Part shown: positions 342 to 62,660 of the stretch, in pieces
How positions within the stretch are numbered: position 1 is the stretch's first letter
How the letters are laid out: each line of letters opens with the position of its first letter
Source of the DNA: a virus
DNA length: 64,000 nt
Strand: one strand, 5' to 3'
Virus record (IMG/VR): IMGVR_UViG_3300003775_000074
Program-made: the position numbers and the translations under genes
Notes under the pieces: generated by a model
The model's input: only the letters and a program-made list of their open reading frames with translations
Told to the model about the DNA's origin: nothing
The model's database searches: none

Positions 342-416
342 AGTTTAGGGAGGAAACGCCCAAGGAGGGCAACGCCCAACCTACGGCTACCTAATTTATT
401 GTCAACATAAAGTTGA

Positions 417-671
417 TTAATAGGCCGTCGCATTATGACGCCTGCATTCGGCAGGCAGATAGAGCCCGATCGCGCAGCCGCCCGCGACAGTCTCGTTGAT
501 CGCGAGTTGATCCTTAGGCGTCGCCCCGCGGGTGCCAGGAAGATCGGTTCCGAGCGCGCGGCGCAGATCAGGGCCGGCACTTGCCGGCTTCGAAGTCGAA
601 TTGCAGCCCGCGAGCAGTGCACTCACGCAGGCCAAGGCGAGCAGCCTCACCAGCATTGCCAGCTTCCTCAT
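417..671 (-). CDS. Outer-membrane lipoprotein, putative o-spanin (Rz1-like)
   Basis: Signal peptide with lipobox LAG-C; overlaps the 3' end of the upstream TM gene in another frame; C-terminal Cys pair. Confidence 0.7.
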   Translation of the reverse strand: MRKLAMLVRLLALACVSALLAGCNSTSKPASAGPDLRRALGTDLPGTRGATPKDQLAINETVAGGCAIGLYLPAECRRHNATAY

Positions 672-804
672 TCTGTTGGTTGATCGAGTCGCGCTCCTTC
701 AGACGCCCATGTTCCTCGATCCCATCAACCGCAAGCTTGAGCGCGATAGCGAGCGCCGCCGCAGCCAGACAAATTGCAATCCATTTGACGGGGATTCCGA
801 ACAT
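568..804 (-). CDS. Putative i-spanin (Rz-like)
   Basis: Single N-terminal TM (WIAICLAAAALAIALKLAV), helical periplasmic part and C-terminal Cys pair; overlapped by a lipoprotein gene. Confidence 0.65.
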   Translation of the reverse strand: MFGIPVKWIAICLAAAALAIALKLAVDGIEEHGRLKERDSINQQNEEAGNAGEAARLGLRECTARGLQFDFEAGKCRP

Positions 805-903
805 GACGATCTCTCCAGCGACAGCGGCAATCTAACTCGCGGCCACTTGTCTATCAACATAATGTTGATTATATCGGCATTATGAGACGAAGGAGATGGG
901 GCG

Positions 904-1113
904 ATGGCGATTGATACGAACGAGCCAGCCGGTGAAACGCGCTATCTGCGCATCAACGACCTGACCGGACGCCTGCCGATATCGCGTCCGACGATCTATC
1001 GCCTGGCGAAGAAGGGGCAGTTCCCCAAGCCGGTCAAGTTCGGCGGATCGAGTGTTTGGATCGAGCGCGAGATATCCGATTGGGAACTCGCGCAGCAGAA
1101 GGCTCGCACTTAG
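904..1113 (+). CDS. alpA: AlpA-family excisionase/regulator
   Basis: YLRINDL..RLPISRPTIYRL.K.GQFPKPVKFGG.SVW.E.EI..W is the AlpA signature; RBS AAGGAG; next to a P4-type integrase. Confidence 0.9.
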   Translation: MAIDTNEPAGETRYLRINDLTGRLPISRPTIYRLAKKGQFPKPVKFGGSSVWIEREISDWELAQQKART

Positions 1114-1136
1114 CTACCCTACAACGGGTGATGGGT

Positions 1137-3469: not shown

Positions 3470-3472
3470 CGA

Positions 3473-3805: not shown

Positions 3806-3895
3806 CGGAAGCTCCCGTTGAGATTTCCCAACGTCATACCGGACACTTGCGCATAATTCAACATAAGGTTACTTATTCTCCAATATGTTGAATGG

Positions 3896-6593: not shown

Positions 6594-6673
6594 AAATCAA
6601 CATAATGTTGCATTTGATCGGGTAAGAGGATATTCCTCGCCGATCGGAATGTTTCGATCGGCGGCGGGCTCGT

Positions 6674-9922: not shown

Positions 9923-9990
9923 CGGCAAGCCGATCGTTGGGTGGGAAACCGCCTGAATAATCAACATTTTGTTGAAAGAGAGAAATCATC

Positions 9991-11584: not shown

Positions 11585-11625
11585 TTCCACATAGTGTTGA
11601 ATTTTCAAACCCTGAAAGGTGCTTC

Positions 11626-13522: not shown

Positions 13523-13567
13523 ATCCAAATTCAACATTATGTTGTTGAATCAACGCAGGAGCGAGAA

Positions 13568-14859: not shown

Positions 14860-15122
14860 ACTCCTGGCTGTGGGGGTTGCGTCGACAGGTCAGCCTTCTT
14901 CTCGCAAACGGCCACCGAGACGCGCAGGAGTACCCGGTCGGTCTGGTGTTTGAGGAAAGTCAACTTGCTGTTGATCGCATCAACGGAATGTTGGCGACAG
15001 AGGCGACCATCCTTCACGCGGTCATGGCTACGGCTGTGTCCGCATTCGGGAAAAAAGGCAGTGCTCAGAAAGCGAACGCTGCGCTGAGCAAGCTGATCAA
15101 GGATCTTGGTGGCGATGGCTAA
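14778..15122 (+). other. Programmed -1 frameshift (A AAA AAC, 14778-14784) giving a gpGT-like extended chaperone ending at 15122
   Basis: Codons CTA AAA AAC. The -1 frame is open (KLPGDGSS...WLWGLRRQVSLLLANGH...) into the 14877..15122 ORF. Confidence 0.85.
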
Positions 15123-20211: not shown

Positions 20212-20271
20212 TCTTGCTTGTTCTCGGCGGTTCAGATATTCAACATAATGTAGAATTAGCGAGGTATTCCA

Positions 20272-22549: not shown

Positions 22550-23383
22550 ATGTCATTCGACGTAATGGAACGCTCGAACTATTTGAGCAAGCCGATTTTT
22601 CTCTATGAATTCCAAATCGGTACGAAGATTTGGCGCTACTCGTCAGACGAGATTGACACGGTGCTACCCGGCGCCGCTCCCGTCTCGGAACGTACCTATC
22701 GCGCGTCGCAGATTTCGGACAATGGCGTCACTCTTGCCGACGACTCTGCCGGCAGCGACATCGTCATCACCATGCGCTCCGACGAGGAGATTGCTCGGTT
22801 CTTCGTGCTTTCGCCACCATCCGACGAGACGTGGGTTCGAATGCGCCGCGTGCAGGCGGAAGATCTAAGCGATGCGCCAATCATTTGGATCGGCACAGTA
22901 AGCAGTTCGAAACAGGCTGGACTTCGGACCACGCAGTTCACCTGTCAGGCGTTGACCGCAACTTTCAATAGAAACGGTCTGCGGTTGGCGTGGAGTCGGC
23001 AATGTCCCTATTCGCTCTATGATCGTCAATGCAAAGTCAACAAATCGTCTTACGGTGTAGTGGTCACTATCGAGAACATAGTTGGCAATGTTATCGTTTC
23101 GGACGCATTGGGTTTATTCACCGACATGCATTTTGGCAACGGATTCTTCGAATTTGCATTAATCGAGGGTTCTTTGGATCGACGTGCGATTGAGTTTCAC
23201 TACGATAATTATTTCAATATTTTGGGAACCCCCGATGGTCTCAGGATCGGACAGGTCATTGCGGTCTATCCGGGTTGCAATCGAACCGTCTCTGGCTGTA
23301 TGAAATTCAACAATATGTCGAATTATGGCGGCTTCCCACAGATGCCAGGGAAATCGCCGTTCAGTGGCAATCCTGTCGTCTGA
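22550..23383 (+). CDS. Tail tip/hub protein (DUF2163 / BR0599 C-terminal family)
   Basis: C.YSLYD.QC and YPGC.RT..GC.KFNN..NYGGFP.MP..SPF motifs. Confidence 0.85.
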   Translation: MSFDVMERSNYLSKPIFLYEFQIGTKIWRYSSDEIDTVLPGAAPVSERTYRASQISDNGVTLADDSAGSDIVITMRSDEEIARFFVLSPPSDETWVRMRRVQAEDLSDAPIIWIGTVSSSKQAGLRTTQFTCQALTATFNRNGLRLAWSRQCPYSLYDRQCKVNKSSYGVVVTIENIVGNVIVSDALGLFTDMHFGNGFFEFALIEGSLDRRAIEFHYDNYFNILGTPDGLRIGQVIAVYPGCNRTVSGCMKFNNMSNYGGFPQMPGKSPFSGNPVV

Positions 23384-26002: not shown

Positions 26003-26061
26003 TCTTTCAAATTCAACATTATGTGGTATATCCTGAGCGAAATTCGAACTCAGGAGCGACC

Positions 26062-27225
26062 ATGGCCGCCGTCGACAAATGGAACGGATTCAAGGGCGCG
26101 GCTAAAAAGCTCGACGACGTCGATCTTCCCCGCATCGGCCATCGCATTGGCGTCGGTGAAGACGAGCTGCACGCCTTCATGGAAGTCGAGGCCGCGGGCG
26201 CCGGGTTCGATAAGGAGGGGCGGCCGAAGATGCTCTTCGAGCCCCACGTCTTCTACCGCAACCTCTCGGGGGCTGAGCGCGATGCGGCGGTGAAAGCCGG
26301 GGTGGCATACGCGAAATGGAAGAAGTCGGGCTATCCCAAGGACAGCTATCCACGCCTGACGGCGGCTATGAAGATCAACGAGACGGCGGCTCTGAAAGCT
26401 GCGTCGTGGGGCTACAGCCAGGTTCTCGGTGAGAATTTCCAAATGGCGGGCTTCGACAGTCCGCAGGCCATGGTGCGCGCGTTCATGGCCGACGAGGAAA
26501 ACCACATCGAGGCGATGGTCAGCTTTATTGTGGCCGCAGGAATTGACGACGATCTGCGGGCCCATCGCTGGGAGGTCGTGGCACGAGTATACAATGGCCC
26601 CGGCAAGGTCGCGGACTATGCGCCAAAGCTCGCCAAAGCCTTCGCGAAGTGGCGCAAGATCCCTGACACGCCGTGGTCGCCTGGTGATTCCAACCCGGTC
26701 GCCCCGGCCGCGACCGCGCCTGAAAAGGAAGTTATCGAGAACGTCCAAAGGCGACTGCGCGAACTGAACTATCCTGAGGTCGGCGAAATCGATGGAGATG
26801 TTGGCTCGAAGACCAGTGGCGCCATCCTGGCTTTCCGCGCCGACGCTGGTCTGCCGCTGACGCCGACGATCGACACTCAGCTCCTGACTGCGCTGATGAT
26901 CGCAAAGCCGCGCGTCGTGGCAGCCGCCCGTGCGAACGCAACCGCTGAAGATCTCAAGGGCAAGTCAGACTCGGTCGACATGGCTGACGCACTCAAGAAG
27001 GGCGGCACCGGGCTCGCCGGCATCAGCGTGTTCGGTAGTGTCCTCAAAAGCCTCGATCTCGACGGTTGGGTTGACGGCGCCGGCAAGCTCAAGGCGCTGA
27101 CCGATACGGTGTTGTCTTTCTCACCGTGGCTGCTGCTTGGCGCAGCGGGCGCTGGTGCAATCTACTTCGGCTCCAAAATCATCCGCGAGCAGGTTCAGGC
27201 CTACCGCGAAGGGCGCCACGTCTGA
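26062..27225 (+). CDS. Endolysin: N-acetylmuramidase (DUF3380-like), peptidoglycan-binding domain and C-terminal hydrophobic helices
   Basis: EVEA.G.GF...GRPK.LFEPH.FYR, ASWG..Q.LGENF and YNGP motifs; VQ.RL.ELNY...G.IDG..G.KT..AI.AF binding domain; RBS AGGAG. Confidence 0.9.
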   Translation: MAAVDKWNGFKGAAKKLDDVDLPRIGHRIGVGEDELHAFMEVEAAGAGFDKEGRPKMLFEPHVFYRNLSGAERDAAVKAGVAYAKWKKSGYPKDSYPRLTAAMKINETAALKAASWGYSQVLGENFQMAGFDSPQAMVRAFMADEENHIEAMVSFIVAAGIDDDLRAHRWEVVARVYNGPGKVADYAPKLAKAFAKWRKIPDTPWSPGDSNPVAPAATAPEKEVIENVQRRLRELNYPEVGEIDGDVGSKTSGAILAFRADAGLPLTPTIDTQLLTALMIAKPRVVAAARANATAEDLKGKSDSVDMADALKKGGTGLAGISVFGSVLKSLDLDGWVDGAGKLKALTDTVLSFSPWLLLGAAGAGAIYFGSKIIREQVQAYREGRHV

Positions 27226-28127
27226 TGCTGCTGTTTCCCTCCAACATCGTTTTCGGTCGAGGAAGAGTGTTCTTCGACCGCTTTCTTGATGGCCAGAGTG
27301 TTGGCGAGGGTGAGCGTTACATCGGCAATACGACGGGTTTTTCGCTCAGCCGGGATATCGACGAGATTGAATGCATCAAGTCTCGCCGCGGCCATCTTCA
27401 GAAAGCTCGCAGCTACGTTGTTCGAGAAAAGCTCACGGGTTCATTCACTACGGACGCTATCTCGACCGAGAACGTGGCAGCGTGGTTTGGCGATGATGCT
27501 GATCTCGAAGGCGTGCCGGCAGGAAATCCCCGAACCGAGACCTTCTTCGTCAAGCGTGGGCGATACTATCAGCTCGGCAAAACCTATCACCCGACCGGCG
27601 TTCGTCACGTCGAAAAGGTGACTTTCGAGGTCAATGGGAATCCATTGGACCCGCAAGACGAACTTGAGCTGAGCAAGGCGGACGGGCGATTCTATGTGCT
27701 GCCAGGGGCGGAAGTTCTGGTCGATGGAGCGCAACTGGTCGTTACTTTCGAGTGGCGGCAATCGCCCACGGCTTCTCGAACCGCGAGCAAACCCAAGGAA
27801 GTGCTCGGCTCTTTGCGCTTTATTGCTGACAACCCGGTTGGTCGGAACAAGGACTACTTTATACCGAGCGCAGCCTTAAAGCCGACCGGCGATTTGTCGC
27901 TGAAAGGCGATGAATGGCAGCAATTCGGTTTCGATTTCGAGATCAGGCAACTCAATCCGAGCGCCGAGTTGCTTTACGTTGTCGAGGATGGGCCGGCTGC
28001 CTACTCGGTCGACGAGCAGGCGATCCTGGATCATTCGGGGATCACGCTCGACGCCTTCCCGTATTGGGAAAACCAACTCGATATCATCATCAACGAAATC
28101 ATTGCCTCACGGGGCTATTTAACCTAG
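27225..28127 (+). CDS. Second, diverged tail-tube paralogue
   Basis: Shares GRGRVFF, RYIGNT.GFSL, TD.IS.EN.A and LKGDEWQQF.F.FE with 13568..14371. Confidence 0.8.
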   Translation: MLLFPSNIVFGRGRVFFDRFLDGQSVGEGERYIGNTTGFSLSRDIDEIECIKSRRGHLQKARSYVVREKLTGSFTTDAISTENVAAWFGDDADLEGVPAGNPRTETFFVKRGRYYQLGKTYHPTGVRHVEKVTFEVNGNPLDPQDELELSKADGRFYVLPGAEVLVDGAQLVVTFEWRQSPTASRTASKPKEVLGSLRFIADNPVGRNKDYFIPSAALKPTGDLSLKGDEWQQFGFDFEIRQLNPSAELLYVVEDGPAAYSVDEQAILDHSGITLDAFPYWENQLDIIINEIIASRGYLT

Positions 28128-28166
28128 AAATCAACATAAAGTAGATTATCCAACATAGGTGCGCTC

Positions 28167-32030: not shown

Positions 32031-32045
32031 GAACAGAATGAGAAC
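32031..32045 (-). promoter_or_regulatory. Alphaproteobacterial LexA box
   Basis: GAAC-agaatga-GAAC (GTTC-N7-GTTC on -), intergenic, upstream of 31574..31849. Confidence 0.65.
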
Positions 32046-32053: not shown

Positions 32054-32287
32054 TCAACCTCTGTTGACTCCGCGAGTCAGGAGCTGTCGCTGCGCTTCGA
32101 GCCGCGACGGCGGCGCGCACTTCGAGCAGTGATGGGAAAAGGAGCCATCGCCGCCCGGTTTGATGGTCCAGCCATCGTTGCGCGCTCGCGCGATCATCTC
32201 ATTGAAATCGCGCCGATCGACCCGGTCGAATAGGTCATCGCAGCCGTCGCACAGGAGGGTGCTCTGTTTGCCGTAGTTCTCGATCAT
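32054..32287 (-). CDS. Small Zn-finger protein (CDGC...CSKC)
   Basis: Start at the ATGA overlap with the methyltransferase stop codon. Confidence 0.7.
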   Translation of the reverse strand: MIENYGKQSTLLCDGCDDLFDRVDRRDFNEMIARARNDGWTIKPGGDGSFSHHCSKCAPPSRLEAQRQLLTRGVNRG

Positions 32288-34882: not shown

Positions 34883-34929
34883 AGCGCGACTCCTTGATTT
34901 TGATATTCAACACAATGTTGATTAACGGG

Positions 34930-36416: not shown

Positions 36417-36643
36417 AGGAGTCTCCAGGGCTTGATGGCGGTTTTTCTGAGGCGCGATCATTCACCGCCAAACGCATCAATCGGGCTGCTCTGAAGGCCG
36501 GAACCCGAGCCTCTATGTCCGGCCTATTCGGAATACCATGTCATGTGCGTGCCTTTGCTCGCGGCGCTTCGACAGCGATCGGATCGTCGCCAGAAGACAA
36601 ATATCCGATCGCAAATACATAATCAACATAAAGTTGATTATCG

Positions 36644-38587: not shown

Positions 38588-38741
38588 GACGATCTCTCGG
38601 TTGGCGACACCACATATAGCGGCGTCAATGTGGACCGATCACTATTATGTTGAAAATGAAGCCGCGCAAACCCGAAAGCGACGTGCGATCGGCCTTACGC
38701 GGCAATAGGTCTATTATCCTAGATAACTAGGATTATGTCCC

Positions 38742-39834: not shown

Positions 39835-40644
39835 TCAGATGCCCACGAGCACGCGGAACCGGTCGTACTGGTCCGCGGTCATGATGAGGCCGACCTTGCC
39901 GGTCTCCTTGTTCTCGCGGGTCTCGACATCGGCCATGAAAGCCTTGAGCTGATCGCGCAGCGACGCCGGCTTTTCCTTGGCCATGTGCTTCGCCGTCGCC
40001 CGGCTCTTGCCTTCGGCCTCGGCGGTGCTGACGGCGTCGCTCAGGGCATCACTGGCGGCCTTCACATCACCCTTGTTCTGCTTGAGGGTCTGGATGGCGA
40101 GCGTGGCCGCCACCTTACCGCTCTCCACAAGCTTGGTGATCGCGTCGGGCGAGGCGCGCAGGGTCAGCAACTCGACGATCCAGGCGCGATTCAGACCGGA
40201 CTTGTTGGCGATGTCCGTCTCGCTCCAGCCGAGATCGATGAGACGCTTGAACACCTGCGCCTGCTCGATCGGAGCGAGCGGCTTGCCCGAGTTACGGACG
40301 ATCTGGCTGAAGACGCGATCAGCCTCGCTCGAATAGCGCTCCTCGGTCTGGACCGGCACCGACTTGATCTCGGCGCCCAGGTGCTCGATCGCGTAGAGCG
40401 TCGCGCCGTATCGACGATGACCGTCAGAGATGAAGGGGGCGCCCTCCTCCCAATAAACGGTGATGTTCTGCTTCACGCCGACCTGGGCAATCGACTGTGC
40501 GAGTGCCAGGTCATCGGGATCGGCCGGGTCGAAGTTCTTGACGCGACTGTTCCAGCCTTCCTTCACACGAAGCTCGCGAGGGTCGATCCGGTAGGTGTCG
40601 GAACGGCCGATCGCGAGATCCTTGATGCCGTGTTTCGTGGACAT
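39835..40644 (-). CDS. ParB/Srx N-terminal domain protein with HTH
   Basis: LA.SI...GV.Q.I.V and ISDGHRR motifs, then EQA.VF.RL...GWS..DIA.K.G HTH. Confidence 0.85.
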   Translation of the reverse strand: MSTKHGIKDLAIGRSDTYRIDPRELRVKEGWNSRVKNFDPADPDDLALAQSIAQVGVKQNITVYWEEGAPFISDGHRRYGATLYAIEHLGAEIKSVPVQTEERYSSEADRVFSQIVRNSGKPLAPIEQAQVFKRLIDLGWSETDIANKSGLNRAWIVELLTLRASPDAITKLVESGKVAATLAIQTLKQNKGDVKAASDALSDAVSTAEAEGKSRATAKHMAKEKPASLRDQLKAFMADVETRENKETGKVGLIMTADQYDRFRVLVGI

Positions 40645-40684
40645 GTCAGGGCTCTTTCCACATTATGTTGATCGAAAAGGCGTG

Positions 40685-41833: not shown

Positions 41834-41940
41834 TGAATTCAGCTCCTGATTTGATAATCAACATTATGTTGACTTTGACCTGTCGTCAACGTGCCCTTGA
41901 GGAATTTTCCACCACACGCTAAAGGCGAAGTGCTCTGGAG

Positions 41941-42633
41941 ATGTCTATGCCCCTGCCCCTGCCCGTGCGTTCGCTGGCCATCGCCCTCGCCGTCATGATC
42001 CCTACGTTCGCTCCTGCCCAGGAGAAGAGCCCGTGGGATTCACATTTCACCGCCCGCTCGAACATCATTCGCTTTCAGGCCAAAACATCGGGCCTTTGGC
42101 AAACATTACTGGTCGGCGATAGCAATACCGAGAGCTTTTGGTGGAACGAAGCTGGCGCGTGCAAGATTGTAAATGCCGGCCTTGCTGGTGCTCGCGTGTC
42201 GGACGTTGCCGATCGACTGGAATTCATTGTCGGCGTAACCCGCCCCTCAGTCGCTCACATTATGCTGGGCACGAACGATGTGCCTCTTGTCGGCAAGATT
42301 GACGGTTATGAAGCGAAGCTTGAAACTGATTTCAAGCGCGTCATTCGCGCCTTCCACCGTAACGAAACTGCGATTTATTTGTGGTTGATTCCGCCTGTCG
42401 GCAAGAATTTTGCCGATCCGGAGTCTGTCAACGTCATCAACGAGATCATCAAGCGCGTGGCGAAGACGGAGAAGGTCGCGCTGGAATCTCAGTGGTCAAC
42501 CAATCTACACGGTCGCGCCGATGCGCTTTTCGATGATGACGTGCATCTGACCGCCAAGGCCAATCAAGAACGCATGAGCCGCATCCGCGAGATTGGCGAG
42601 CAGTCCAAGGTGAGATGCATCCCGCCCGCTTGA
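41941..42633 (+). CDS. Exported SGNH/GDSL hydrolase (moron)
   Basis: Signal peptide (ALAVMIPTFAPA-Q), then GDSNT, NAG..G, LGTND and D.VH; antisense to the surrounding block. Confidence 0.85.
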   Translation: MSMPLPLPVRSLAIALAVMIPTFAPAQEKSPWDSHFTARSNIIRFQAKTSGLWQTLLVGDSNTESFWWNEAGACKIVNAGLAGARVSDVADRLEFIVGVTRPSVAHIMLGTNDVPLVGKIDGYEAKLETDFKRVIRAFHRNETAIYLWLIPPVGKNFADPESVNVINEIIKRVAKTEKVALESQWSTNLHGRADALFDDDVHLTAKANQERMSRIREIGEQSKVRCIPPA

Positions 42634-42648: not shown

Positions 42649-42663
42649 GTTCCCTTTCTGTTC
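42649..42663 (+). promoter_or_regulatory. Alphaproteobacterial LexA box
   Basis: GTTC-cctttct-GTTC, 19 nt upstream of ATG 42683. Confidence 0.75.
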
Positions 42664-42682: not shown

Positions 42683-42943
42683 ATGGGCAACAAGATCGGT
42701 TCAAACTGGATCGTCGACAGCGTCTCACCGGAAGGCGCTGAGGAGTGGATCGCAGAGTCCGCCAACGTCGTCGTGGCCCGAGCGGCTTATGACGAGGCAT
42801 TGAAACACCGGCCTGGTCGTGTGGTCAGATTCCGTCACGGCCCGCAAATCCTCACGACACAGATCGGCTGGAGATGCGACTGGTGGCTGGAGAAAACCGA
42901 GCCCTGCGGATGCCCTACGTGCGTGGCGAACCGGGAGCAGTAG
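42683..42943 (+). CDS. Small protein, putatively SOS-regulated
   Basis: RBS GGAG/GGA and a LexA box; A.AAYDEA....P...VRFRHG. Confidence 0.7.
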   Translation: MGNKIGSNWIVDSVSPEGAEEWIAESANVVVARAAYDEALKHRPGRVVRFRHGPQILTTQIGWRCDWWLEKTEPCGCPTCVANREQ

Positions 42944-44281: not shown

Positions 44282-44760
44282 AACCGCTCCTCGTGAGATT
44301 CAGCTCTGGTGTCCTCATTAATCAACATTATGTTGATTATGTCAACCGGCCATCATGCACCGGACGTGAGGTCTGGCGAGGGCTTGAGTGAACCAGGATT
44401 TTGACGCCTTGGTTCTCTGGCCTGATTTTCGGAACAGGCGAGGTTTTTCAAGTACCGACGTCGGTTGCGCGCGCTCGCGCTCCTGCGCCTATACGCTCGC
44501 GCTATCCGCCCGCGATCACGGGCAAGCGTGCATGCACACCCGTCCGCAGGCAGGTGCAGGCGGGCGCCCGCGAATAGCAGGATTCGCCCGATAGTCAACA
44601 CTAGGTGGAATATTGACGCGGAAAATCCCGACGCGAACAGCATTCCGCGCCATTAGCGCGCCTGTGGCGGCATTTGCGACCTTGCCCGCTGCCATGGTAG
44701 CTCGCATAGGCGGCAAGGGGCTTCCCTGGCCTTCCTATTGAGTTTTGGCGAGGGAATAGG

Positions 44761-46395: not shown

Positions 46396-46788
46396 TTATA
46401 CGGCCTGCCAAACTTCGAAGCCTGCTTTCCGCAGGGCCGAGTCCCAATTTTCGCCGCCGTCACGCTGCAGCGCATAGCGAAAGGCGTCATAGGTTGGAGC
46501 CGTATCCGGCGAAACGTAGTTGTCCGCCATGACATCGCTCATTTGATAGGGAAAAGGCAGTTTGTGCGCCGCGACGGAAGCGGCGGCCGTTTTCTTGTCA
46601 TAGCCGTAACCGCCCGCATATCCGCGCACCATCTGCGAGCCGGTCCAATGCACATACGCATAGAGCCGCCCTGCGCCGTCACGGGGGAACTTGAAGGCGA
46701 TAGTTGCGACGCGCTGGCCCTCTTTGACGATGACAAAGGCCGAGACGTTGGAAAAGGCGGCGTCGAATTGCTTGTAGATGTCAGACAT
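46396..46788 (-). CDS. Hypothetical protein
   Basis: G.AGGYGYDK..AA motif; its RBS lies inside the palindrome at 46794. Confidence 0.75.
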   Translation of the reverse strand: MSDIYKQFDAAFSNVSAFVIVKEGQRVATIAFKFPRDGAGRLYAYVHWTGSQMVRGYAGGYGYDKKTAAASVAAHKLPFPYQMSDVMADNYVSPDTAPTYDAFRYALQRDGGENWDSALRKAGFEVWQAV

Positions 46789-46844
46789 GATTTTCCACCT
46801 TATGTTGAATGAGAGGGCGCACCTGTGGCGCGGATCGGGAAGGG

Positions 46845-47180
46845 TTAGGCTGCAAACCGATATGGCTGCAGGTAGATTGTCGCGAGCGTTCGGCCGCGTG
46901 TGCTTTGAAGCGTCACGGATGCCGGCTTGCGCGGTTCCGGCGCCCCAGCTTCGCTAGTGAACCAAACCCCGCCGCGACGGTCCCATGCCTTGCGCCAATA
47001 GTGCGGCAGGCATTCCCTCACGGCGTCATAGTCGGGATTAACGAGTCCGTGCCCTTCAAAGAAATGGGCCGAATAGCCGGCGCCCTGATGCGGCACGGCC
47101 TTGACCGGCCCCTTGACGCATTGCGGATGATCGGCCGCGCTGTTGTGAAGCACGGTGTAAAGGATGACGTCGCGGCTCAT
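46845..47180 (-). CDS. Hypothetical protein
   Basis: ATGA overlap with the upstream gene. Confidence 0.65.
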   Translation of the reverse strand: MSRDVILYTVLHNSAADHPQCVKGPVKAVPHQGAGYSAHFFEGHGLVNPDYDAVRECLPHYWRKAWDRRGGVWFTSEAGAPEPRKPASVTLQSTRGRTLATIYLQPYRFAA

Positions 47181-48451
47181 GACAAATGCACCTTGCCGTC
47201 ATCGCCGATATAGACGTCGCAGCCACCCATGGCGCTCGCAGCTTCGGAAAGAGCTGTTGCATGGGGCTCTTGCCAATCACCATCCCAAAAGCCGCAACCA
47301 TGGCCATTGCGCGTGTACCAAAAATCTCGACCCGCGCGGATGTCGTCAGGTTGCTCTTCTTCGCCAGCAAGAGCGCTAGTCCCTAGAGCACGCCATGCGG
47401 GCGTCGCTTGGAACGCGCTACAATCGGCGATGATCGAGGCGAGCGCTTCCGACGCAAGGTCCGCAACACCATAGGAATTGCCGCCGACGAAGCTCGACTC
47501 CATGGTGGCGGTATTGAAGGCAACAGTCGGCATTTCGCGCCCCTCACCTTCCTCGCAAAGCCGCTCTTCCTCAGTGAAGAAAAGCGCCTCGATATAACCT
47601 TGTGTGAAGGCGTCCAAAGCCTGGAACGCGGGCGCATCGGCGCCGGTGAGAATGAAGGCTGGCATGGGTCGATTCCTTTTCAACGCCTTGCGGACGGCGC
47701 TGCAGATTGCAGGGAATTCCCCCACGCCCTTAGCGGCGCGACGGTCGCGGCCAAGCGCAAGAATAGCCTTCCGCCATTCGGCAATCTGCGCCCCTAGATC
47801 CGCATAGCGCGAGCCTGCCGCCCATGCCGTTTGATATTCGCGCTCTTCCTCGGCCGCGCGCTTGGCCATGTCATCGGCTGCCCGCGCCGCGTCGTGCGCC
47901 ATATCGTCGTCGCGAGCGTTCCCGTATCCATCGGCCCGGCCGGAAAAGATGCGCGAGAAGTCGAGAGTCGGCCCGCCATCCATCCCGCCGAACTGATAGC
48001 CCGCGACGAAGCGGGAATGCCCGCGCTTGCCGGGAAGCTGATACACGACGCCATAGCAAAGCCCGCTGCCGTCTTTGAAGACGTCGCCATGTGGATCAGT
48101 GATCCAACCATGATCAGGCGCTTCCGCATTGCGCTGCCAGCGAGAGTCCCGACGCTCTTCCGGGTTGACGGCGCCGACATAGCGCAGGCCGAAATTTGCG
48201 GGCAGCTCGACATGAGCTATGCCCTTTTCCGCCTGCCGCGAAAAGTAAGCGAATTCGGGATAGCGGGCCTCATTGTAGAACGTCTGCCCGCGCTCATCAT
48301 CGGCCCGCGCTTTGGCCAAACAGGCGATTGCTGCCTGGCCGCGAAGACGCTGCACATACGGAGTCGGATTGACGGCGCGAGCTGCAGCCGCGTTGTTCAG
48401 GGCGCGGCCCTTGTGATGGAAATAGCCGGCGCGAACGTTGTGGGAAAGCAT
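47177..48451 (-). CDS. Two-domain hypothetical protein, possible fusion of two genes
   Basis: Internal RBS and ATG before MPAFILTG; C-terminal AG.DFW.TRNGHG.GFWD motif. Confidence 0.7.
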   Translation of the reverse strand: MLSHNVRAGYFHHKGRALNNAAAARAVNPTPYVQRLRGQAAIACLAKARADDERGQTFYNEARYPEFAYFSRQAEKGIAHVELPANFGLRYVGAVNPEERRDSRWQRNAEAPDHGWITDPHGDVFKDGSGLCYGVVYQLPGKRGHSRFVAGYQFGGMDGGPTLDFSRIFSGRADGYGNARDDDMAHDAARAADDMAKRAAEEEREYQTAWAAGSRYADLGAQIAEWRKAILALGRDRRAAKGVGEFPAICSAVRKALKRNRPMPAFILTGADAPAFQALDAFTQGYIEALFFTEEERLCEEGEGREMPTVAFNTATMESSFVGGNSYGVADLASEALASIIADCSAFQATPAWRALGTSALAGEEEQPDDIRAGRDFWYTRNGHGCGFWDGDWQEPHATALSEAASAMGGCDVYIGDDGKVHLS

Positions 48452-48478
48452 GACGATAGCCTTTCAATACTATGTGGA

Positions 48479-48748
48479 TTAACGGGACGCGGAAAAGCGC
48501 GAGCGCTCGCAAGTGAGGCGAGTCCAGTCGTCGGGAATGACGGCGCCCTTGCTCGCCTCGCGGCAGGTAGAGCCGGCGCCCGCAATGTAGACGTGTCCGG
48601 CCCGCGTTTCCGCAATGAGCTGGTACGTCGCGCGCGGCTGCATGACGGGCCAAAGGAGGCCGGCGCCGAACGCGGTTGCGAGCATGACGCCAGCGCCAAG
48701 GGCGGGCAGGATGGCGGGGCGATGGTGCGGAATGTGGGGGCGAGCCAT
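48479..48748 (-). CDS. Small membrane-anchored protein
   Basis: TM segment ALGAGVMLATAFGAGLLW; palindromes on both sides. Confidence 0.65.
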   Translation of the reverse strand: MARPHIPHHRPAILPALGAGVMLATAFGAGLLWPVMQPRATYQLIAETRAGHVYIAGAGSTCREASKGAVIPDDWTRLTCERSRFSASR

Positions 48749-48772
48749 GATTATCAACCTTATGTTGATTAT

Positions 48773-48988: not shown

Positions 48989-49053
48989 TCTCCGTCCGTT
49001 GTGAGTCTGACTATGAGCGTCCGTGTTGCATTAGTCAACACTATGTTGAGTGT

Positions 49054-49326: not shown

Positions 49327-49395
49327 TCAACACCTCATTGATTGATGCACAACGGACGCTAGAGCCTGGCTGCAGCGCAGTCAACACAATGTTGA

Positions 49396-50112
49396 TTAAT
49401 CGCCCATGATCGAAAAGAGGAGTCGGGCATAATCAACAGCCCCGGTTTCCCGATCGATGCCGGCCGCAGCTCGATACGCCTCATCCGTGCGCGCATGCTT
49501 GGAATCGTTATGCGGTTTGCAAAGCCATTGAATGTTGGAAGCGCGGTTAGATCCGCCTCTAGACAAAGGCGTCATGTGGTCAATCGTCAGTCGCTCGGCG
49601 GCATCGCAATAGGCGCATTGGCCACCCTGCAGCACTAATAGCAATGCCGCCTGATCAAGGCTGAACTCGCCTTCCGCAGCTCGCATCCTGGCACGCCTCA
49701 ATGAACGCATGCGCCGCCATAGATCGCGCTGGCGTTGAGGGCGGTTAGTCTCGCGCTCTTGCCGAGCCATCTCGATTGCATGCCCATAGGCCTGCCGCAT
49801 GGCCAATGCATCAGCCTCACGCACCTCACGGCGCAAGCGAGCAGCCTCACGCTTGGGTGCATATGCTGCAGCCTTGGAAGCCCTCACCTTGTCGGGGTTC
49901 GCCCGCTTCCATGCGCGCTTTCGTTCCCGCTCTTGCTCAATGCGCCCTGCCTTGTAGCGCCTGCCATCCGCAGCGAGGCAATGCACGCAAGCGCCGTTCG
50001 CCGTGTAGCGCAATCGAGCGTCGCACCGTGCACAGGGGGAGCCTCGATAACAGCGCGCGCCTAGCAGCCTGGCCGCACCTCGATCATGGGCAATGTCGCT
50101 ATCAGTCAACAC
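49396..50112 (-). CDS. HNH endonuclease adjacent to cos
   Basis: Q.GQCAYC and TIDHMTPLSRGGSN..SNIQWLC..HN..K motifs. Confidence 0.88.
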   Translation of the reverse strand: MLTDSDIAHDRGAARLLGARCYRGSPCARCDARLRYTANGACVHCLAADGRRYKAGRIEQERERKRAWKRANPDKVRASKAAAYAPKREAARLRREVREADALAMRQAYGHAIEMARQERETNRPQRQRDLWRRMRSLRRARMRAAEGEFSLDQAALLLVLQGGQCAYCDAAERLTIDHMTPLSRGGSNRASNIQWLCKPHNDSKHARTDEAYRAAAGIDRETGAVDYARLLFSIMGD

Positions 50113-50248
50113 AGCACAACCTCACCTAACGCAATGCCCGATGTGGGGCGCGCTTAGATGGATAGGAATATCAACCTTATGTTGATCGATCAAGTGATGC
50201 GCCGATGCGCTGATGAGTTGATTGATGCACAACGGACAAGGTGGCTTC

Positions 50249-50290
50249 GGGTCCTGGGCCGCTAAAAATGACGACCGCGGGGGCGCTGAG
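50249..50290 (+). other. Putative lambda-type cos: cosQ GGGTCCT (50249-55) and candidate 12-nt cohesive end GGGGGCGCTGAG (50279-90)
   Basis: Exact lambda cosQ heptamer; applying lambda's 23-nt spacing places the nick before a G-rich 12-mer; gpA-type terminase present. The exact cut position is uncertain. Confidence 0.6.
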
Positions 50291-50347
50291 ACCCCGTTGC
50301 GTGCGGATTTTGAGATTTTTTTCCTAAAATATACGGTTTTGGCGATT

Positions 50348-50678
50348 TACTTGGACCCTTGGACGGTTTTTGGCTCCTACTTGGACGGAAGTTTTCTGTT
50401 ATTTTTCATATACTTATTAAATAAAGTCCAATGGTCCAAAGAGTCCAAGTGAAATTCCCGTGTATGCGCGATCACACACCTGCTGGCAGAAGCGTCCGTT
50501 GTGCATAAATCAACTCATTGGAGAAGGATGCACAACGAACGGCTCTGTCACGTATAGGGATTTTGGCCCATTTTACTTGGACGTTTGGACCAAAATTAAC
50601 ATCCGACTGAAAACTAAGGAAAATTCCCGTCCAACGAGTCGTTTTTTCACTTGGACCGGTCCAAGTAATCACTTGGAC
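50348..50678. repeat. AT-rich array of 12 TTGGAC/GTCCAA repeats plus an IHF consensus site (cosB-like or origin iterons)
   Basis: TTGGAC at 50351, 50359, 50381, 50577, 50585, 50651, 50673; GTCCAA at 50426, 50434, 50443, 50629, 50659; AATCAActcaTTG at 50508. Confidence 0.85.
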
Positions 50679-50725
50679 TCTGAGCACTTTTGCTAATCGA
50701 CATTATGTTGACTCGCGCTTCAGGC

Positions 50726-51046
50726 ATGGTTATGGCTGGGAAATCGCGGGAGGCGAGCGTGAGGAAATTCCGAGAGGACCGCCTGTTCATTCAGGAGATG
50801 CGGACGATCCGCAAATGGTTGGCGCGGCAGTCGTCGATCACGATGGTCCAGTTATGGGGAAAAGGGCTCAAGCGAAACCCGCGTGATCTGCAAACTGCGG
50901 AAGCTCAGCGGATCGCGTTCATCCTCACCAAGAAGCTCGGATGGGAGAAAAGCGGCTCTCGCATTGTCGATGCCAAAGGGTGCCGGCATTGGGAGTACCG
51001 GCCCAAGCCACCGATCGTCGCCATTTACGAAGATCTGCTCGGCTGA
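50726..51046 (+). CDS. Basic winged-helix-like protein ending YEDLLG
   Basis: A.RIA.IL...LGWEK.......G.R.WEY.P recalls the C-terminal DNA-binding module of VapE-type primase/helicases. Start uncertain. Confidence 0.6.
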   Translation: MVMAGKSREASVRKFREDRLFIQEMRTIRKWLARQSSITMVQLWGKGLKRNPRDLQTAEAQRIAFILTKKLGWEKSGSRIVDAKGCRHWEYRPKPPIVAIYEDLLG

Positions 51047-52932: not shown

Positions 52933-53250
52933 TCATTGCGCGCGCCTTACTGCGATTTCCAATAGCCGCATAAGATCGGTCGAGTCGACGCCGAGTTTAT
53001 CTGCCATGGATTCAATAAAATCGTCTTCCGAACGTGTAATGGCTGCTGAAGCTTCATTCTCTCGCACTCGTTGACGTTCAGTCAGCCACGCTTTGGCGAT
53101 TCGCACCGCGCCTTGACCACTGTGCGAATAACCAGGAATATCCTCGTCATCGAATCTGGCCGAGAAAATTGTAAAGCCGTTGCTGTCGGTGCTTTCCGTT
53201 ATGACAACACGATCGGTAATGCGCTCACCGTACTGCGTCACGATGCTCAT
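52933..53250 (-). CDS. Hypothetical protein
   Basis: 105 aa; ATGA-type overlap with the upstream gene. Confidence 0.6.
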   Translation of the reverse strand: MSIVTQYGERITDRVVITESTDSNGFTIFSARFDDEDIPGYSHSGQGAVRIAKAWLTERQRVRENEASAAITRSEDDFIESMADKLGVDSTDLMRLLEIAVRRAQ

Positions 53251-53729
53251 AGCTCGATCACCTCGATCTCATGGCGGTGGCCGGCGAACACAGCCTCGTC
53301 GCTTATGATGCCCAGGATCTCACCCGACTTCTTATTGCGAAGGAGTGTCCTGGCCGGATGGACTTGCAGGATCATGCCGCCCATCCGGTTCGGGAAAAGC
53401 GGGTTGAAGTGCCCAGGTTCCACCTGCGCAACCAGCTTGTCGCGCGTCGCGCCGGTCATATAGAGCGTGTCGTGCGGTGCGGGTGGAAGCGCCGCCGCGA
53501 GCTTTGCGAAATTGCTGAGAAAATCGCTCGCCGACCGGGTTGAATCCGCTCTCGTCTGCGTCGTAACCGCATCCGAAAGAGGCCGCTTTTCGCCGTAGCG
53601 CGGGAGATAATCGGCGATCCGATCCTCATGATCCTGCGCGATCATTCTACCCAGGCGGGCGAGTTCGTCTTCGAGTTTGAGCACGGGAAAGGCTCCATCC
53701 GGGTTGCTGGACGGAGATAAGCACGTCAA
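53247..53729 (-). CDS. Hypothetical protein
   Basis: Downstream of the palindrome at 53740; start uncertain. Confidence 0.55.
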   Translation of the reverse strand: MTCLSPSSNPDGAFPVLKLEDELARLGRMIAQDHEDRIADYLPRYGEKRPLSDAVTTQTRADSTRSASDFLSNFAKLAAALPPAPHDTLYMTGATRDKLVAQVEPGHFNPLFPNRMGGMILQVHPARTLLRNKKSGEILGIISDEAVFAGHRHEIEVIEL

Positions 53730-53754
53730 AAATGATTAGTCAACACTATGTTGA

Positions 53755-56609: not shown

Positions 56610-56754
56610 ATGAAAGCTCCTGTTGGCGGATGCACCGTAGCCCAGCCCAATTTGAAATTCAACATTATGTTGACCAACGATCCCGAGCGTGATTATGTGA
56701 TCCCCGTCGCGCCGATCGGCGCCAGATTTCCAAAGCCCTGAAACGGAGTGAACG

Positions 56755-59583: not shown

Positions 59584-59603
59584 TCGCTGATCCCTGACGC
59601 CAG

Positions 59604-59632
59604 TATCCCGACGCCATAAGTGCGTCGGGATA
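59604..59632 (+). terminator. Hairpin between ssb and pol, abutting the palindrome at 59634
   Basis: TATCCCGACGC-cataagt-GCGTCGGGATA. Confidence 0.6.
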
Positions 59633-59715
59633 TTCAACATAATGTTGCTTGTTCCGTCGCTTCCGTGGCGACGGCTTTCCACATGGGCGAACCTGGATTT
59701 CGCCGAGGAGGCCTT

Positions 59716-61788
59716 ATGGCGACGCTCTTTGTCGACGTCGAATGCTATCGCAATTTCTTCTACATCGGCATCAAGCGTCTCGAAGACGGGCGTCGCGTTG
59801 GCTTTGAATTCAGCAAGCGAACTGATCTTACGGGTGGTTTCGACCGCGGTCGCATCCGGCAGATCATGAAGAACAACCTCTCGATCGGCTTCAACAGCCT
59901 GCCATACGACGTGCCGATGATATTCCTGGCCTTGAGCGGTGCCAGCAATGACGACCTCAAGATCGCGAGCGATCGGATCATCAAGGGCGGGCTCCGGTGG
60001 TGGGAAGTCGAAGAAGCGCTCGACATCAAGATTCCGAAGCTCAACCACATCGATCTGTTCGAGCCCAATCCCGCGGTGAAGGACGGCCTCAAGACGCTCA
60101 ATGGTCGGCTGCACGGGAAGCGCTTGCAGGATCTGCCGTATGACGAGGCGACCATCCTGTCGCCCGAGCAGATGGACATCGTCGCCGATTATTGCCTGAC
60201 GAGCGATCTCGACGCGACCGAGAACCTGTTCAACGCTCTCGCCGAGCCGCTGGAGCTTCGTGAAGCGCTCGGTCGGCAGTACGGCATGGATTTCCGCTCG
60301 AAATCCGATGCGCAGATGGGTGAAGCCATTATCAAGAAGCGCGTCGAGACGATCACCAAGCAGCGCGCCGAAAGGCCCAGGAACATCGGTGGCACGAGCT
60401 TCCGCTACCAGGTGCCCGAGTTCTTCGAATTTCAGAGCCCACAAATGCGGGAGATCGTCGACACGATCCGTAAGACCGATCTGCATATTGATCGCAACGG
60501 CAAGGTCGAATTTCCGAAGGCATTCGACGACTTCAACATCACGATCGGATCGTCGACCTATCGAATGGGAATCGGCGGCCTGCATTCGACCGAGAGCTGT
60601 CGCGCCGTCCACTCCGATGACGACTATGTCCTGGTCGACGCTGACGTGGCCAGCCAATACCCGCGCATCATCATGAAGCTGGGGCTCTATCCGAAATCGC
60701 TCGGGCCATCGTTCCTGCCTGTCTACGGCAGCCTCATCGACGATCGCGTCAAGGCCAAGCATCAGGCCAAGCTGATCAACGACCAGCTCGCGCCGCTGCG
60801 TGCTCTCGATCCCGCAGCCCTCGTCGCCGCACAGGATCGCATTGCTGCGCTCGAAGCTGAGAAGCGCCAGGCGCTCGCACGCGACAAAGGTGGCAAGATC
60901 GCGCTCAATGGCGCCTACGGGAAGCTCGGCAGCATCTACAGCGTGCTTTACGCTCCGCACCTGATGATCGCCGTCACCCTCACCGGACAGCTCTCCTTGC
61001 TGATGCTGATCGAGCGGGCCGAGGCAGCCAGCATCTCCGTCGTTTCGGGCAACACCGATGGCGTGGTGTTCCGCTGCCCGCGCTCGATGTTCGAGGGTAT
61101 CGGTAAGGAAGGGCCTGACAAGGATCGCCTCCTCGGTGGCAAGCTCAAGGAGATCACCGACTGGTGGGAGCAGAAGACCGGTTTCGAGCTGGAATTCGCC
61201 GAGTACCGCTCGATCTACAACCGCGACGTCAACACCTACTTCGCGATCAAGGCGAACGGGAAGGCGAAGCGGAAGGGGGCCATCGCCAATCACTGGCATC
61301 CCGAGTCGCCGGACTATGATCCCGGCCGCGAGCAGATGAAGAAGAACCCGCAGATGACGATTTGCGGTGATGCGGTCCTAGCCTTCCTCAAGGACGGTAC
61401 GCCTATCGAGGAGACGATCCGCGGCAACACCGACATCAGGGGCTTCGTGACCGTCGTGAAGGCCACGGGAGGCGGCACCTGGCGGGATCACTATCTCGGC
61501 AAGGTGGTGCGCTACTACTGGTCGACGGACGGCGATCCGATCATCAAGGTCAAGGGGCATCCGAAGACCGGCAATCGCCCCAAGGTCTCGAAGACAGATG
61601 GGTGTAAGCCGGCGATGACCTTGCCCGACGAGATGCCAACCGATCTCGATTATGCGCGCTACATCGCCGAGGCCTACGACATCCTCAGAGCGGTTGGATA
61701 CGAGGTGCCAGCTACCGCGCCGTCAGCCTATCAGCAACTCCTCGAAGACGTCTTTGTCGGGAAGCGGATTATTGGCAGTCTTTCATAA
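59716..61788 (+). CDS. DNA polymerase, family B type, with 3'-5' exonuclease
   Basis: Exonuclease DVEC and FN..YD motifs; polymerase DV.SQYP, K..LNG.YGK and NTDG motifs; RBS GAGGAGG. Confidence 0.92.
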   Translation: MATLFVDVECYRNFFYIGIKRLEDGRRVGFEFSKRTDLTGGFDRGRIRQIMKNNLSIGFNSLPYDVPMIFLALSGASNDDLKIASDRIIKGGLRWWEVEEALDIKIPKLNHIDLFEPNPAVKDGLKTLNGRLHGKRLQDLPYDEATILSPEQMDIVADYCLTSDLDATENLFNALAEPLELREALGRQYGMDFRSKSDAQMGEAIIKKRVETITKQRAERPRNIGGTSFRYQVPEFFEFQSPQMREIVDTIRKTDLHIDRNGKVEFPKAFDDFNITIGSSTYRMGIGGLHSTESCRAVHSDDDYVLVDADVASQYPRIIMKLGLYPKSLGPSFLPVYGSLIDDRVKAKHQAKLINDQLAPLRALDPAALVAAQDRIAALEAEKRQALARDKGGKIALNGAYGKLGSIYSVLYAPHLMIAVTLTGQLSLLMLIERAEAASISVVSGNTDGVVFRCPRSMFEGIGKEGPDKDRLLGGKLKEITDWWEQKTGFELEFAEYRSIYNRDVNTYFAIKANGKAKRKGAIANHWHPESPDYDPGREQMKKNPQMTICGDAVLAFLKDGTPIEETIRGNTDIRGFVTVVKATGGGTWRDHYLGKVVRYYWSTDGDPIIKVKGHPKTGNRPKVSKTDGCKPAMTLPDEMPTDLDYARYIAEAYDILRAVGYEVPATAPSAYQQLLEDVFVGKRIIGSLS

Positions 61789-61824
61789 CTTGATAATCAA
61801 CATAGAGTTGATTAAATTATCGCC

Positions 61825-61923
61825 ATGTTCGACGATCCGCTAGGTCTCATTCTACCCTCCATCGTGGCCGTCACGTATATCGCGTGGGGAGCGCATTGGC
61901 TGCTGGGCAGAGTCAAAAAGTGA
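61825..61923 (+). CDS. 32-aa single-TM peptide, not in ORF track
   Basis: MFDDPLGLILPSIVAVTYIAWGAHWLLGRVKK; its stop overlaps the GTG of the next gene (GTGA); starts 13 nt after a palindrome. Confidence 0.45.
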   Translation: MFDDPLGLILPSIVAVTYIAWGAHWLLGRVKK

Positions 61924-62660
61924 GGTTTTTTGTCGGGTTACATCAGCCGTCTGATGCGGCGCATTTCAATCACGCCTTCATTTCAGTAAATCGCATTCGG
62001 AAGCGCATAAAGCCAATTGCAGCAAAATCGTGGATAATGGATAGCGGTGCGTTTACGACTATCTTGACACATGGCGGATATCCTGAAGGCGTCGAATTCT
62101 ATGCTGACCAAATAAAGCGGTGGTCAACTCATGGAAATTTACTCGCCGCTGTGGCACAAGACTACATGTGCGAGGCGCATATGCTGGCGCTCACAGGCAA
62201 GACGATTGAGGAGCATCAGCGCCTGACAATCGAGCGTTACGACGCTTTAATCACTTGCGACACTGGTGGCGTGTACATCATGCCAGTTCTGCAAGGGTAT
62301 TCGCCTGTTGACTACGTGCGCCATATCGAAATGTACGGTGATCGGCTGGCTCATGGCGCTTGGGTCGGTGTCGGAAGTGTCTGTAAACGGAATGGCGATC
62401 CATCGGCGATCGAAGAGGTGCTCACCGCGATTAAGACTGCCCGGCCTGATCTACTCTTACATGGCTTCGGTCTGAAAACGACCGCGCTGGCGTCAGATAT
62501 TGTTCGAAATCTTTTATGGACGGCCGACTCAATGGCTTGGTCATTTGCTGCGCGCAAACAAGGGCGAAACGCTAACGATTGGCGGGAAGCAAAACGGTGG
62601 GAAATGAAAATACTCCGGGTGTCTCCTTTCGAGTTGATAATCAACTCTATGTTGATTTAG
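61920..62660 (+). CDS. TGT-fold protein, putative deazaguanine DNA transglycosylase (DpdA-like)
   Basis: MDSGAF, QDY.C, PVLQG, HGFG and ADSMAW occur in the order of the TGT barrel motifs. Confidence 0.7.
   Translation: MRFFVGLHQPSDAAHFNHAFISVNRIRKRIKPIAAKSWIMDSGAFTTILTHGGYPEGVEFYADQIKRWSTHGNLLAAVAQDYMCEAHMLALTGKTIEEHQRLTIERYDALITCDTGGVYIMPVLQGYSPVDYVRHIEMYGDRLAHGAWVGVGSVCKRNGDPSAIEEVLTAIKTARPDLLLHGFGLKTTALASDIVRNLLWTADSMAWSFAARKQGRNANDWREAKRWEMKILRVSPFELIINSMLI

Follow-up and report, generated by a model that had tools for sequence, protein, structure and literature searches.

In this study, we describe a short palindrome, TCAAC-N5-GTTGA, that recurs in about 31 credible copies across a 64,000-nt stretch of viral DNA (IMG/VR record IMGVR_UViG_3300003775_000074, hereafter the window), which comprises most of a 67.9-kb temperate Casjensviridae-like prophage of an alphaproteobacterial host. 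We propose that these palindromes are the operators of a phage-encoded dimeric repressor, most likely P0001, a 243-amino acid HTH_3 regulator whose gene is located approximately 1.8 kb past the right end of the window, and we put the probability of this reading at about 0.68. The sites, their placement and conservation, their restriction to the prophage and their co-occurrence and co-variation with P0001 are established.

The window contains 16 exact copies of TCAAC-N5-GTTGA, compared to 0.02 on average and at most 1 in dinucleotide-preserving shuffles. When one mismatch is allowed, 34 matches are found, with 1.4 expected. About 26 of these were judged credible because they share the extended consensus ttgATAA-TCAACATwATGTTGA-TTAt, and a further five intergenic copies with two mismatches retain the conserved centre (3858, 3877, 26013, 38639 and 48464), which gives the total of about 31. 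Alignment of the copies extends the dyad to approximately 21 bp, as the flanks are near-symmetric too (ATAA and TTAT, respectively). An earlier note on this DNA had described about 30 copies of the motif, and this description holds: all of the coordinates it named could be located, two of them (3858 and 26013) as two-mismatch copies. Sites inside coding sequence, as the note had claimed, are found at 23307, 32311 and 62641, hairpins do stand before the copies at 11586 and 59634, which it had placed behind terminators, and the copies at 46794 and 48754, which it had described as containing the ribosome binding site, both lie 5 nt from a start codon and have AAGG on the coding strand. An exact 18-mer scan of IMG/VR gave single chance-level matches and no relatives.

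Placement was assessed using the gene calls of metagenome contigs identical to the window. Although 93% of the 66.5-kb prophage is coding, intergenic positions account for 16 of the 18 exact copies (binomial P = 4e-17). A copy is present in 28 of the 47 gaps that are 15 nt or longer, namely all six divergent gaps, 21 of the 37 co-directional gaps and one of the four convergent gaps, and the distance from a copy to the next start codon ranges from 5 to about 67 nt, apart from a few longer ones. The copies of the head/tail operon are mostly half-degenerate, with only 2 of 11 being perfect, whereas 16 of the 23 copies elsewhere are perfect (Fisher P = 0.009).

The nearest named relatives of the prophage are Rhizobium phage RHph_X2_30 (hereafter X2_30) and the Rhodobacter RcD phages, which belong to the Casjensviridae. 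Gene order is collinear with X2_30, and the proteins share 40-62% identity. X2_30 has 11 exact copies of the palindrome and approximately 20 further copies with one mismatch, and exact copies are also present in Achromobacter phage AchV4 (nine), Klebsiella phage YMC16/01/N133 (six) and Marinobacter phage PS6 (three). Three metagenomic relatives with P0001 homologues of 41-46% identity are likewise enriched in the core motif. Relatives with the motif span alpha-, beta- and gammaproteobacterial hosts. In contrast, Casjensviridae without a P0001 homologue, namely Chi, PspYZU01, BcepNazgul and Sano, have 0-1 copies. Positions in X2_30 were considered testable if both flanking genes, or the gene containing the copy, have X2_30 orthologues, and at 10 of the 11 testable positions X2_30 has a site with at most one mismatch; two of these are inside coding sequence and one carries the same TCCAC variant. 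For the nine gene junctions compared between the window and X2_30, the probability that at least eight are occupied by chance is approximately 4e-8. The half-degenerate pattern seen between 3858 and 28145 of the window recurs at the same head/tail junctions of X2_30.

P0001 (L026:13158-13889, equivalent to window positions 65826..66557) is encoded by the last prophage gene before the host DNA, and its promoter is located between two exact copies of the palindrome. The first of these, TCAACACATTGTTGA, stops 7 nt short of the -35 box TTGACA, which is followed by a 17-nt spacer and the -10 box TATTCA, and the last bases of the -10 box form the start of the second copy, TCAACACTCCGTTGA. A copy abutting the -10 box is also found directly upstream of the P0001 homologues of X2_30, AchV4, Klebsiella phage YMC16 and the loci L029, L031 and L032, as well as in prophages of Rhizobiales, Stakelama, Bosea, Aquamicrobium, Mesorhizobium, Achromobacter and Stutzerimonas. 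PS6 is the exception, as the region upstream of its P0001 homologue is differently arranged. The operator also co-varies with the protein. Rhodobacterales homologues, which are 28-36% identical to P0001, have TCAC-N7-GTGA in the place of the upstream operator, and the helix-turn-helix (HTH) motifs of the two classes differ, reading GRQKW..SxEA in the TCAAC class and GRLGW..TxET in the TCAC-N7-GTGA class. Phage RcPescado has no copy of TCAAC-N5-GTTGA and five of TCAC-N7-GTGA, three of which are intergenic and one of which extends over the start annotated for the P0001 homologue. The RcD-cluster phages, which lack TCAAC-N5-GTTGA and have TCAC-N7-GTGA in smaller numbers, appear to represent another specificity class of this system. 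In RcPescado (L033 and L060), TCAC-N7-GTGA is found at positions 13528, 17317, 40788 and 60195, and the regulator gene is gp19.

The N-terminal HTH of P0001 matches Pfam HTH_3 (PF01381) with 24.1 bits at a cut-off of 23, and the closest PDB sequences were those of TP901-1 CI and 434 Cro, with weak matches in both cases (E 0.05). P0001 belongs to phrog_2967, annotated as 'transcriptional regulator', and an exhaustive search found full-length relatives in at least 547 protein clusters. A search of viral contigs with P0001 alone as the query found no related loci; a 12-row alignment was used for the genome scan for homologues. An AlphaFold (AF2) model built from 60 sequences (predicted local distance difference test (pLDDT) score of 93) consists of the HTH domain, a helix of 24 residues and a third domain of alpha/beta type. 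Pfam gave no match to an S24 peptidase domain in P0001. Instead, Foldseek places the C-terminal domain with the nuclease I-Ssp6803I and the Hjc resolvases (probability 1.0, E 3e-4 to 1e-3), with TM-scores by target of 0.4-0.55. Among 60 family members, the PD-(D/E)XK catalytic residue D138 is present in 50, E151 in 10, K153 in 11 and the full E-x-K motif in five, and P0001 itself reads S-V-K at the (D/E)-x-K position. Since the E-x-K motif is lost in P0001 and in most members, the C-terminal domain is most likely a dead nuclease that serves the pairing of subunits.

We also scanned the genomes of five lysogens with related prophages, using as control the reversed pattern, which occurs 1-2 times per genome. 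Aquamicrobium has 17 of its 19 exact copies in the prophage span or its contigs, Bosea has 11 of 12, Mesorhizobium 8 of 11 and a Rhizobiales isolate 14 of 24, and in Stutzerimonas the exact copies cluster on the prophage contig. Outside the prophage, copies are at or near the control level in three of the five genomes and more frequent in the Rhizobiales isolate. No copy is present in the 7 kb of host DNA adjoining the prophage studied here. As the copies are concentrated in the prophages of these five lysogens, the motif is not a host regulon. A motif equally frequent in host DNA would, according to the earlier note, have spoken against its idea of a single phage regulator behind many dispersed sites; with the copies confined mostly to the prophage, this idea explains the sites best. 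The note's further proposal, that the regulator silences or switches genes one by one, newly acquired ones included, is conjectural.

The half-site GTTGA(C/T) is similar to the -35 box TTGACA, and the position of the operator relative to the promoter hexamers differs between sites. It lies over the -35 box in the exact copies at 49035..49049 (TTGACT-17-CATAGT, minus strand), 49381..49395, which abuts the stop codon of the HNH gene and can be read as TTGACT, and 56659..56673. The latter is an exact consensus copy in the divergent early region, whose right half-site forms the -35 box of the rightward TTGACC-17-TTATGT and whose left half-site is oriented toward the Cro-like/primase operon. The same position is seen in X2_30 at 502 and 1533 (TTGACT-16-TATAGT). 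In five other exact copies, the operator is located in the spacer, ahead of a -10 candidate: on the minus strand, the copy at 36623..36637 occupies the spacer of TTGACG-17-GATTAT, upstream of ThyX; that at 44322..44336, in a divergent gap, follows TTGACA-taa and precedes GATTAA as the -10 box on the minus strand; that at 48754..48768, 5 nt before 48479..48748(-), lies within TTTAGA-16-GATAAT; that at 61797..61811 lies within TTGATA-17-TAAATT before DpdA; and that at 62641..62655, in the last codons of DpdA and 13 nt before the start of the C5 methyltransferase gene, lies within TTGATA-18-TAGAGT. At P0001's own promoter, the operator follows the -10 box.

Going by sequence, we infer that P0001 binds these sites as a dimer, represses transcription and may act as a roadblock at some of them, and a possible mechanism can be outlined as follows. 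The C-terminal domain would pair two P0001 subunits, and the two HTH motifs would read the half-sites TCAAC and GTTGA, spaced by one helical turn. In a lysogen, P0001 would occupy its own promoter, with one copy upstream of the -35 box and one over the -10/+1 region, resulting in negative autoregulation. At early and middle promoters, where the operator lies over the -35 box, in the spacer or over the -10 box, P0001 would act by occlusion, and the variable register of the operator fits such a mechanism better than activation from a fixed position. The copies of the head/tail operon, which are weaker, half-degenerate and without an evident promoter, could be roadblocks or extra anchoring points. 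A roadblock is possible since the copies at 46794 and 48754 and those at the promoterless late junctions must be transcribed through. As it lacks an S24 domain, P0001 would not be expected to undergo RecA-driven self-cleavage, and induction should need an antirepressor or another route. Words of the form GTTC-N7-GTTC, which resemble the alphaproteobacterial LexA box, are present at 32031..32045 and 42649..42663, at chance level (2 versus 2.0 expected); both are located in palindrome-free intergenic gaps, before the small genes 31574..31849 and 42683..42943, respectively. An SOS-controlled antirepressor behind these boxes is a lead only.

Several observations weigh against P0001 as the reader of the operators. 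The case for it is built wholly on sequence, and P0001 is encoded outside the window and was read from the identical metagenome contigs. The co-variation of HTH and operator is a two-class contrast on related sequences with few independent events, and L043, a member of the TCAAC class, has an intermediate helix. A prediction of the P0001 homodimer gave a score of 0.40, with a mark of 0.42 and controls at 0.00, and was used neither way. Consensus promoter scans were barely above shuffles (9 versus 5.3 and 3 versus 3.7), so these scans alone cannot place promoters at the sites, and the sigma-70-like hexamers are weak at many of them. The approximately 10 sites inside the late operon are not readily accounted for by a repressor, and in the Rhizobiales genome (G001) 10 copies are located outside the prophage span. 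Lastly, the Cro-like protein P0002 is conserved in X2_30, AchV4 and Klebsiella phage YMC16, all of which have the motif, and its gene is preceded, at a distance of 49 nt, by the exact consensus copy of the divergent early region, an arrangement also seen in relatives.

P0002 (56277..56609, minus strand) was the regulator favoured by the earlier note. It has a YdaS/Cro-type HTH, and since CI and Cro of lambda share their operators, P0002 could be the main reader or a second one, binding the same sites during lytic growth and shutting off early genes. We consider this unlikely. Between the window and X2_30, P0002 is 31% identical overall and its recognition helix shows little conservation, even though both have the identical motif. 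In PS6, the three copies are accompanied by a P0001 homologue but P0002 is not detectable, whereas PspYZU01 lacks P0001, has a gene resembling that of P0002 and contains only one copy. In addition, a site in the divergent early region is expected equally for a CI target. The copies at its own promoter, the co-variation and the gene content of PS6 and PspYZU01 thus make P0001 the better fit. P0002 may share the operators as a counter-regulator, by analogy with Cro in lambda.

Somewhat less probable still is that the sites are positive elements, either bidirectional promoter cores or activator sites, with P0001 being an activator or a dual regulator. GTTGAC or GTTGAT can be read as a -35 box followed by a good -10 box at 49035, 49381 and 56659 and at 502 and 1533 in X2_30, every divergent gap holds a copy and most copies are located 5-67 nt upstream of a start codon, all of which would suit such a role. 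However, activators usually need a fixed position, and here the operator is found over the -35 box, in the spacer or after the -10 box. At the P0001 promoter of the relatives with the motif, the copy lies over the -10/+1 region, which is a repressing position. The two copies 5 nt from a start codon must be transcribed through, and one copy (402) is located in a convergent gap.

The palindromes might also act as RNA hairpins, cruciforms or microhomology for cassette swaps instead of protein operators, a reading to which we give little credence, although copies do stand at gene boundaries, bracket accessory genes (HNH, 49381/50171; DpdA, 61797/62641) and can fold into RNA hairpins. With stems of only -4 to -7 kcal/mol and no compensating change in the partner arm in any mismatched copy of the window, the RNA hairpin reading was rejected. 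Hairpins would be weaker still in the relatives, which keep only the 5-bp arms, and the motif is strand-symmetric, is kept at orthologous junctions between genomes without alignable intergenic DNA and co-occurs with one regulator gene. That a host protein, such as a global regulator or a nucleoid protein, reads the sites and is exploited by the phages is the least probable explanation and very hard to sustain: an identical motif in phages of three proteobacterial classes would fit a very conserved host factor, but the distribution in the five lysogen genomes, the copy-free adjoining host DNA and the near absence of the motif from Casjensviridae of the same host groups without P0001 all speak against it. 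As a separate candidate, the ParB/KorB-like protein encoded at 39835..40644 was rejected, as it has no homologue in X2_30 even though that phage has 11 exact copies.

The remaining copies are distributed along the window as follows, where a copy in X2_30 refers to the orthologous junction or place. Exact copies lie at 402..416, in the gap where the end of the integrase gene and gene 417..656(-) converge, and at 854..868, in a divergent gap 35 nt upstream of the AlpA-like gene 904..1113. Two degenerate copies with two mismatches each (3858 and 3877) span 3858..3891, in the divergent gap that precedes the gene of the small terminase. Within the head genes, one-mismatch copies are located at the junction of TerL and gpW (6597..6611; a copy is present at the same junction in X2_30) and after the major capsid gene (11586..11600; with a TCCAC half-site, the variant also found at this junction in X2_30), and an exact copy lies between the protease and decoration protein genes (9961..9975; kept in X2_30). 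The tail genes have a one-mismatch copy before the major tail gene (13531..13545; kept in X2_30), an exact copy within the second tail-chaperone frame (14960..14974; exact at the corresponding place in X2_30), and one-mismatch copies at the junction of the tape measure gene and the next gene (20240..20254) and within the 3' end of tail gene 22550..23383 (23307..23321; with a copy at the corresponding place in X2_30). The two-mismatch copy before the endolysin gene (26013..26027) marks the only testable junction without a counterpart in X2_30, and a one-mismatch copy at the junction of 27225..28127 and 28167..29456 (28131..28145) is kept in X2_30.

Among the early genes, a one-mismatch copy is located within the 3' end of the methyltransferase gene, 23 nt before gene 32054..32287(-) (32311..32325), and an exact copy 24 nt before the GapR-like gene (34907..34921) is kept in X2_30. 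A two-mismatch copy lies 51 nt before the ribonucleotide reductase (RNR) gene (38639..38653), a one-mismatch copy 12 nt before the ParB-like gene (40657..40671) and an exact copy in the divergent gap between MazG(-) and GDSL(+) (41858..41872). The one-mismatch copy at 46794..46808 precedes the start of 46396..46788(-) and gives AAGGTGGA as its ribosome binding site, and a two-mismatch copy is found 12 nt before 47177..48451(-) (48464..48478). Further exact copies lie in the divergent gap between HNH(-) and 50225..50452(+) (50171..50185) and at 53740..53754, where the copy abuts the stop codon of the primase-polymerase gene, 55 nt before 53247..53684(-), and a one-mismatch copy is located 47 nt before 50759..51046(+) (50697..50711). 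In the replication block, a one-mismatch copy behind a hairpin precedes the DNA polymerase gene (59634..59648), and X2_30 has an exact copy at this junction. The HNH endonuclease gene (49396..50112) has exact copies on both sides, at its stop (49381) and before its start (50171), like a self-contained cassette, and the DpdA gene is likewise located between two exact copies, 61797 and 62641.

The 5' end of the window lies in the 3' part of the integrase gene, and family searches identified, in this order, a lambda-like head module, a long tail, an endolysin, leftward early genes and a rightward replication block. The head module codes for the small and large terminase, gpW, portal, an S49 protease, a decoration protein and an E-type capsid protein. 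The leftward early genes code for an N6/N4 methyltransferase, GapR-like protein, ThyX, RNR, ParB-like protein, MazG, a HerA-like ATPase and HNH, and a tRNA-Arg gene is located close by. The Cro/YdaS-like gene and the primase-polymerase gene of the divergent early region, both leftward, are placed opposite the rightward block, which codes for a DUF2800 nuclease, an Enc34-type single-stranded DNA-binding protein, DNA polymerase, DpdA and a C5 methyltransferase. Right of the window end, a VRR-NUC gene, a SNF2 helicase gene and the P0001 gene follow before the host DNA begins. Identical DNA is present as a prophage in metagenome contigs of 442 kb and 139 kb, where it adjoins selD, selB, selA and fdhE; the integration site is thus beside host selenocysteine genes (selD, selB, selA) and fdhE (L026:14203-21113). 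A 67,916-bp metagenome contig appears to hold the entire element, which suggests that an excised or free phage genome was also assembled. The DpdA-like gene (PF23859) is followed by the C5 methyltransferase-like gene (61920..63841), and no preQ0 synthesis genes were noticed among the proteins scanned. Three GDSL/SGNH esterase genes are present in this one phage genome (1137..2294, 29450..30466 and 41947..42633). The left end of X2_30 (L024:75-340) contains eight tandem-like copies of CACAGCGTTAC, a word that is also found in the spacer of two X2_30 early promoters (520 and 1551). These repeats may be cos/terminase sites, origin iterons or the sites of a second regulator.

Text searches with the motif letters and the family name found no description of the motif, nor do the AchV4 or Rhodobacter phage papers contain one. 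The system could serve as a model for how little-studied phages, whose relatives include phages of rhizobia, Rhodobacter, Achromobacter, Klebsiella and Pseudomonas-group hosts, keep 60-70 kb of DNA silent. The 15-bp signature marks such prophages in genomes, phrog_2967 gains a putative function and a predicted DNA target, and the TCAAC and TCAC specificity classes bear on immunity groups among these phages.

The earlier note had contrasted the dispersed sites with lambda and likened them to the stoperators of Cluster A mycobacteriophages, and both comparisons are fair. With the lambdoid CI/Cro systems of 434, P22 and lambda, the system shares the HTH type, dyad operators whose half-sites are spaced by one helical turn, operator copies at the promoter of the repressor gene itself and, as a distinct small gene, a Cro-like one at a divergent promoter of the early region. 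The autoregulatory layout of P0001, as judged by position only, is also that of Cro/CI-type repressors. Unlike the lambdoid repressors, P0001 lacks an S24 autopeptidase domain and its gene is located 9 kb from the Cro-like gene, and about 30 sites are spread over 66 kb, compared to six in one region. The Streptomyces phage phiC31, a temperate siphovirus, has a repressor that binds well over a dozen palindromic conserved inverted repeats (CIRs) of approximately 17 bp at dispersed early promoters. The likeness to this system consists in the many dispersed palindromic repressor sites in place of one immunity region; host phylum and site sequence differ, and whereas the CIRs are concentrated in the early region, conserved copies are here also found in the head/tail operon. 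KorB of plasmid RK2, a member of the ParB family, acts on 12 palindromic OB operators, at promoters and away from them. Here, too, a mobile element is globally controlled through one scattered palindrome, but the candidate reader P0001 is not a ParB protein, and X2_30 has no equivalent of the prophage's ParB-like gene.

Phage T1 and Citrobacter phage Stevie, siphoviruses of Proteobacteria, have 16-20 copies of a short, mostly intergenic repeat; unlike the palindromes described here, these repeats are asymmetric and oriented with transcription, are found in lytic phages and have no assigned reader (PMC4319613). The closest parallel in layout is found in the Cluster A mycobacteriophages, where the repressors of L5 (gp71) and TipsytheTRex have more than 20 sites genome-wide, at promoters and in short intergenic gaps (PMC9283540, PMC6550527), which in L5 act as roadblocks (PMC9283540). 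These sites are asymmetric 13-mers, bound by a repressor monomer with HTH and 'Stoperator' domains and active in one orientation only (PMC9283540, PMC6550527). The prophage described here likewise has more than 20 dispersed sites (about 31) at promoters and in short gaps and a candidate reader with an N-terminal HTH. In contrast, its site is a 15-bp dyad, so that orientation cannot matter, its reader combines HTH_3 with a C-terminal domain of nuclease fold and is presumably a dimer, and the hosts are Proteobacteria. Genome-wide networks of repressor sites have so far been a speciality of actinobacteriophages, with the L5-type stoperators and the phiC31 CIRs, and the same logic is now seen in temperate Casjensviridae-like phages of alpha-, beta- and gammaproteobacteria. 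As both the geometry of the site and the architecture of the repressor differ, this likely represents an independent invention. More tentatively, and with the odds rather against it, one might speculate that a widespread and so far undescribed class of repressors, combining HTH_3 with a dead Hjc-like domain, silences prophages through approximately 10-30 orientation-independent dyads, with the weak copies that distant phages keep at the same late junctions serving as elongation roadblocks or looping anchors, and that this class is the symmetric, dimeric counterpart of the stoperator system, having arisen independently.

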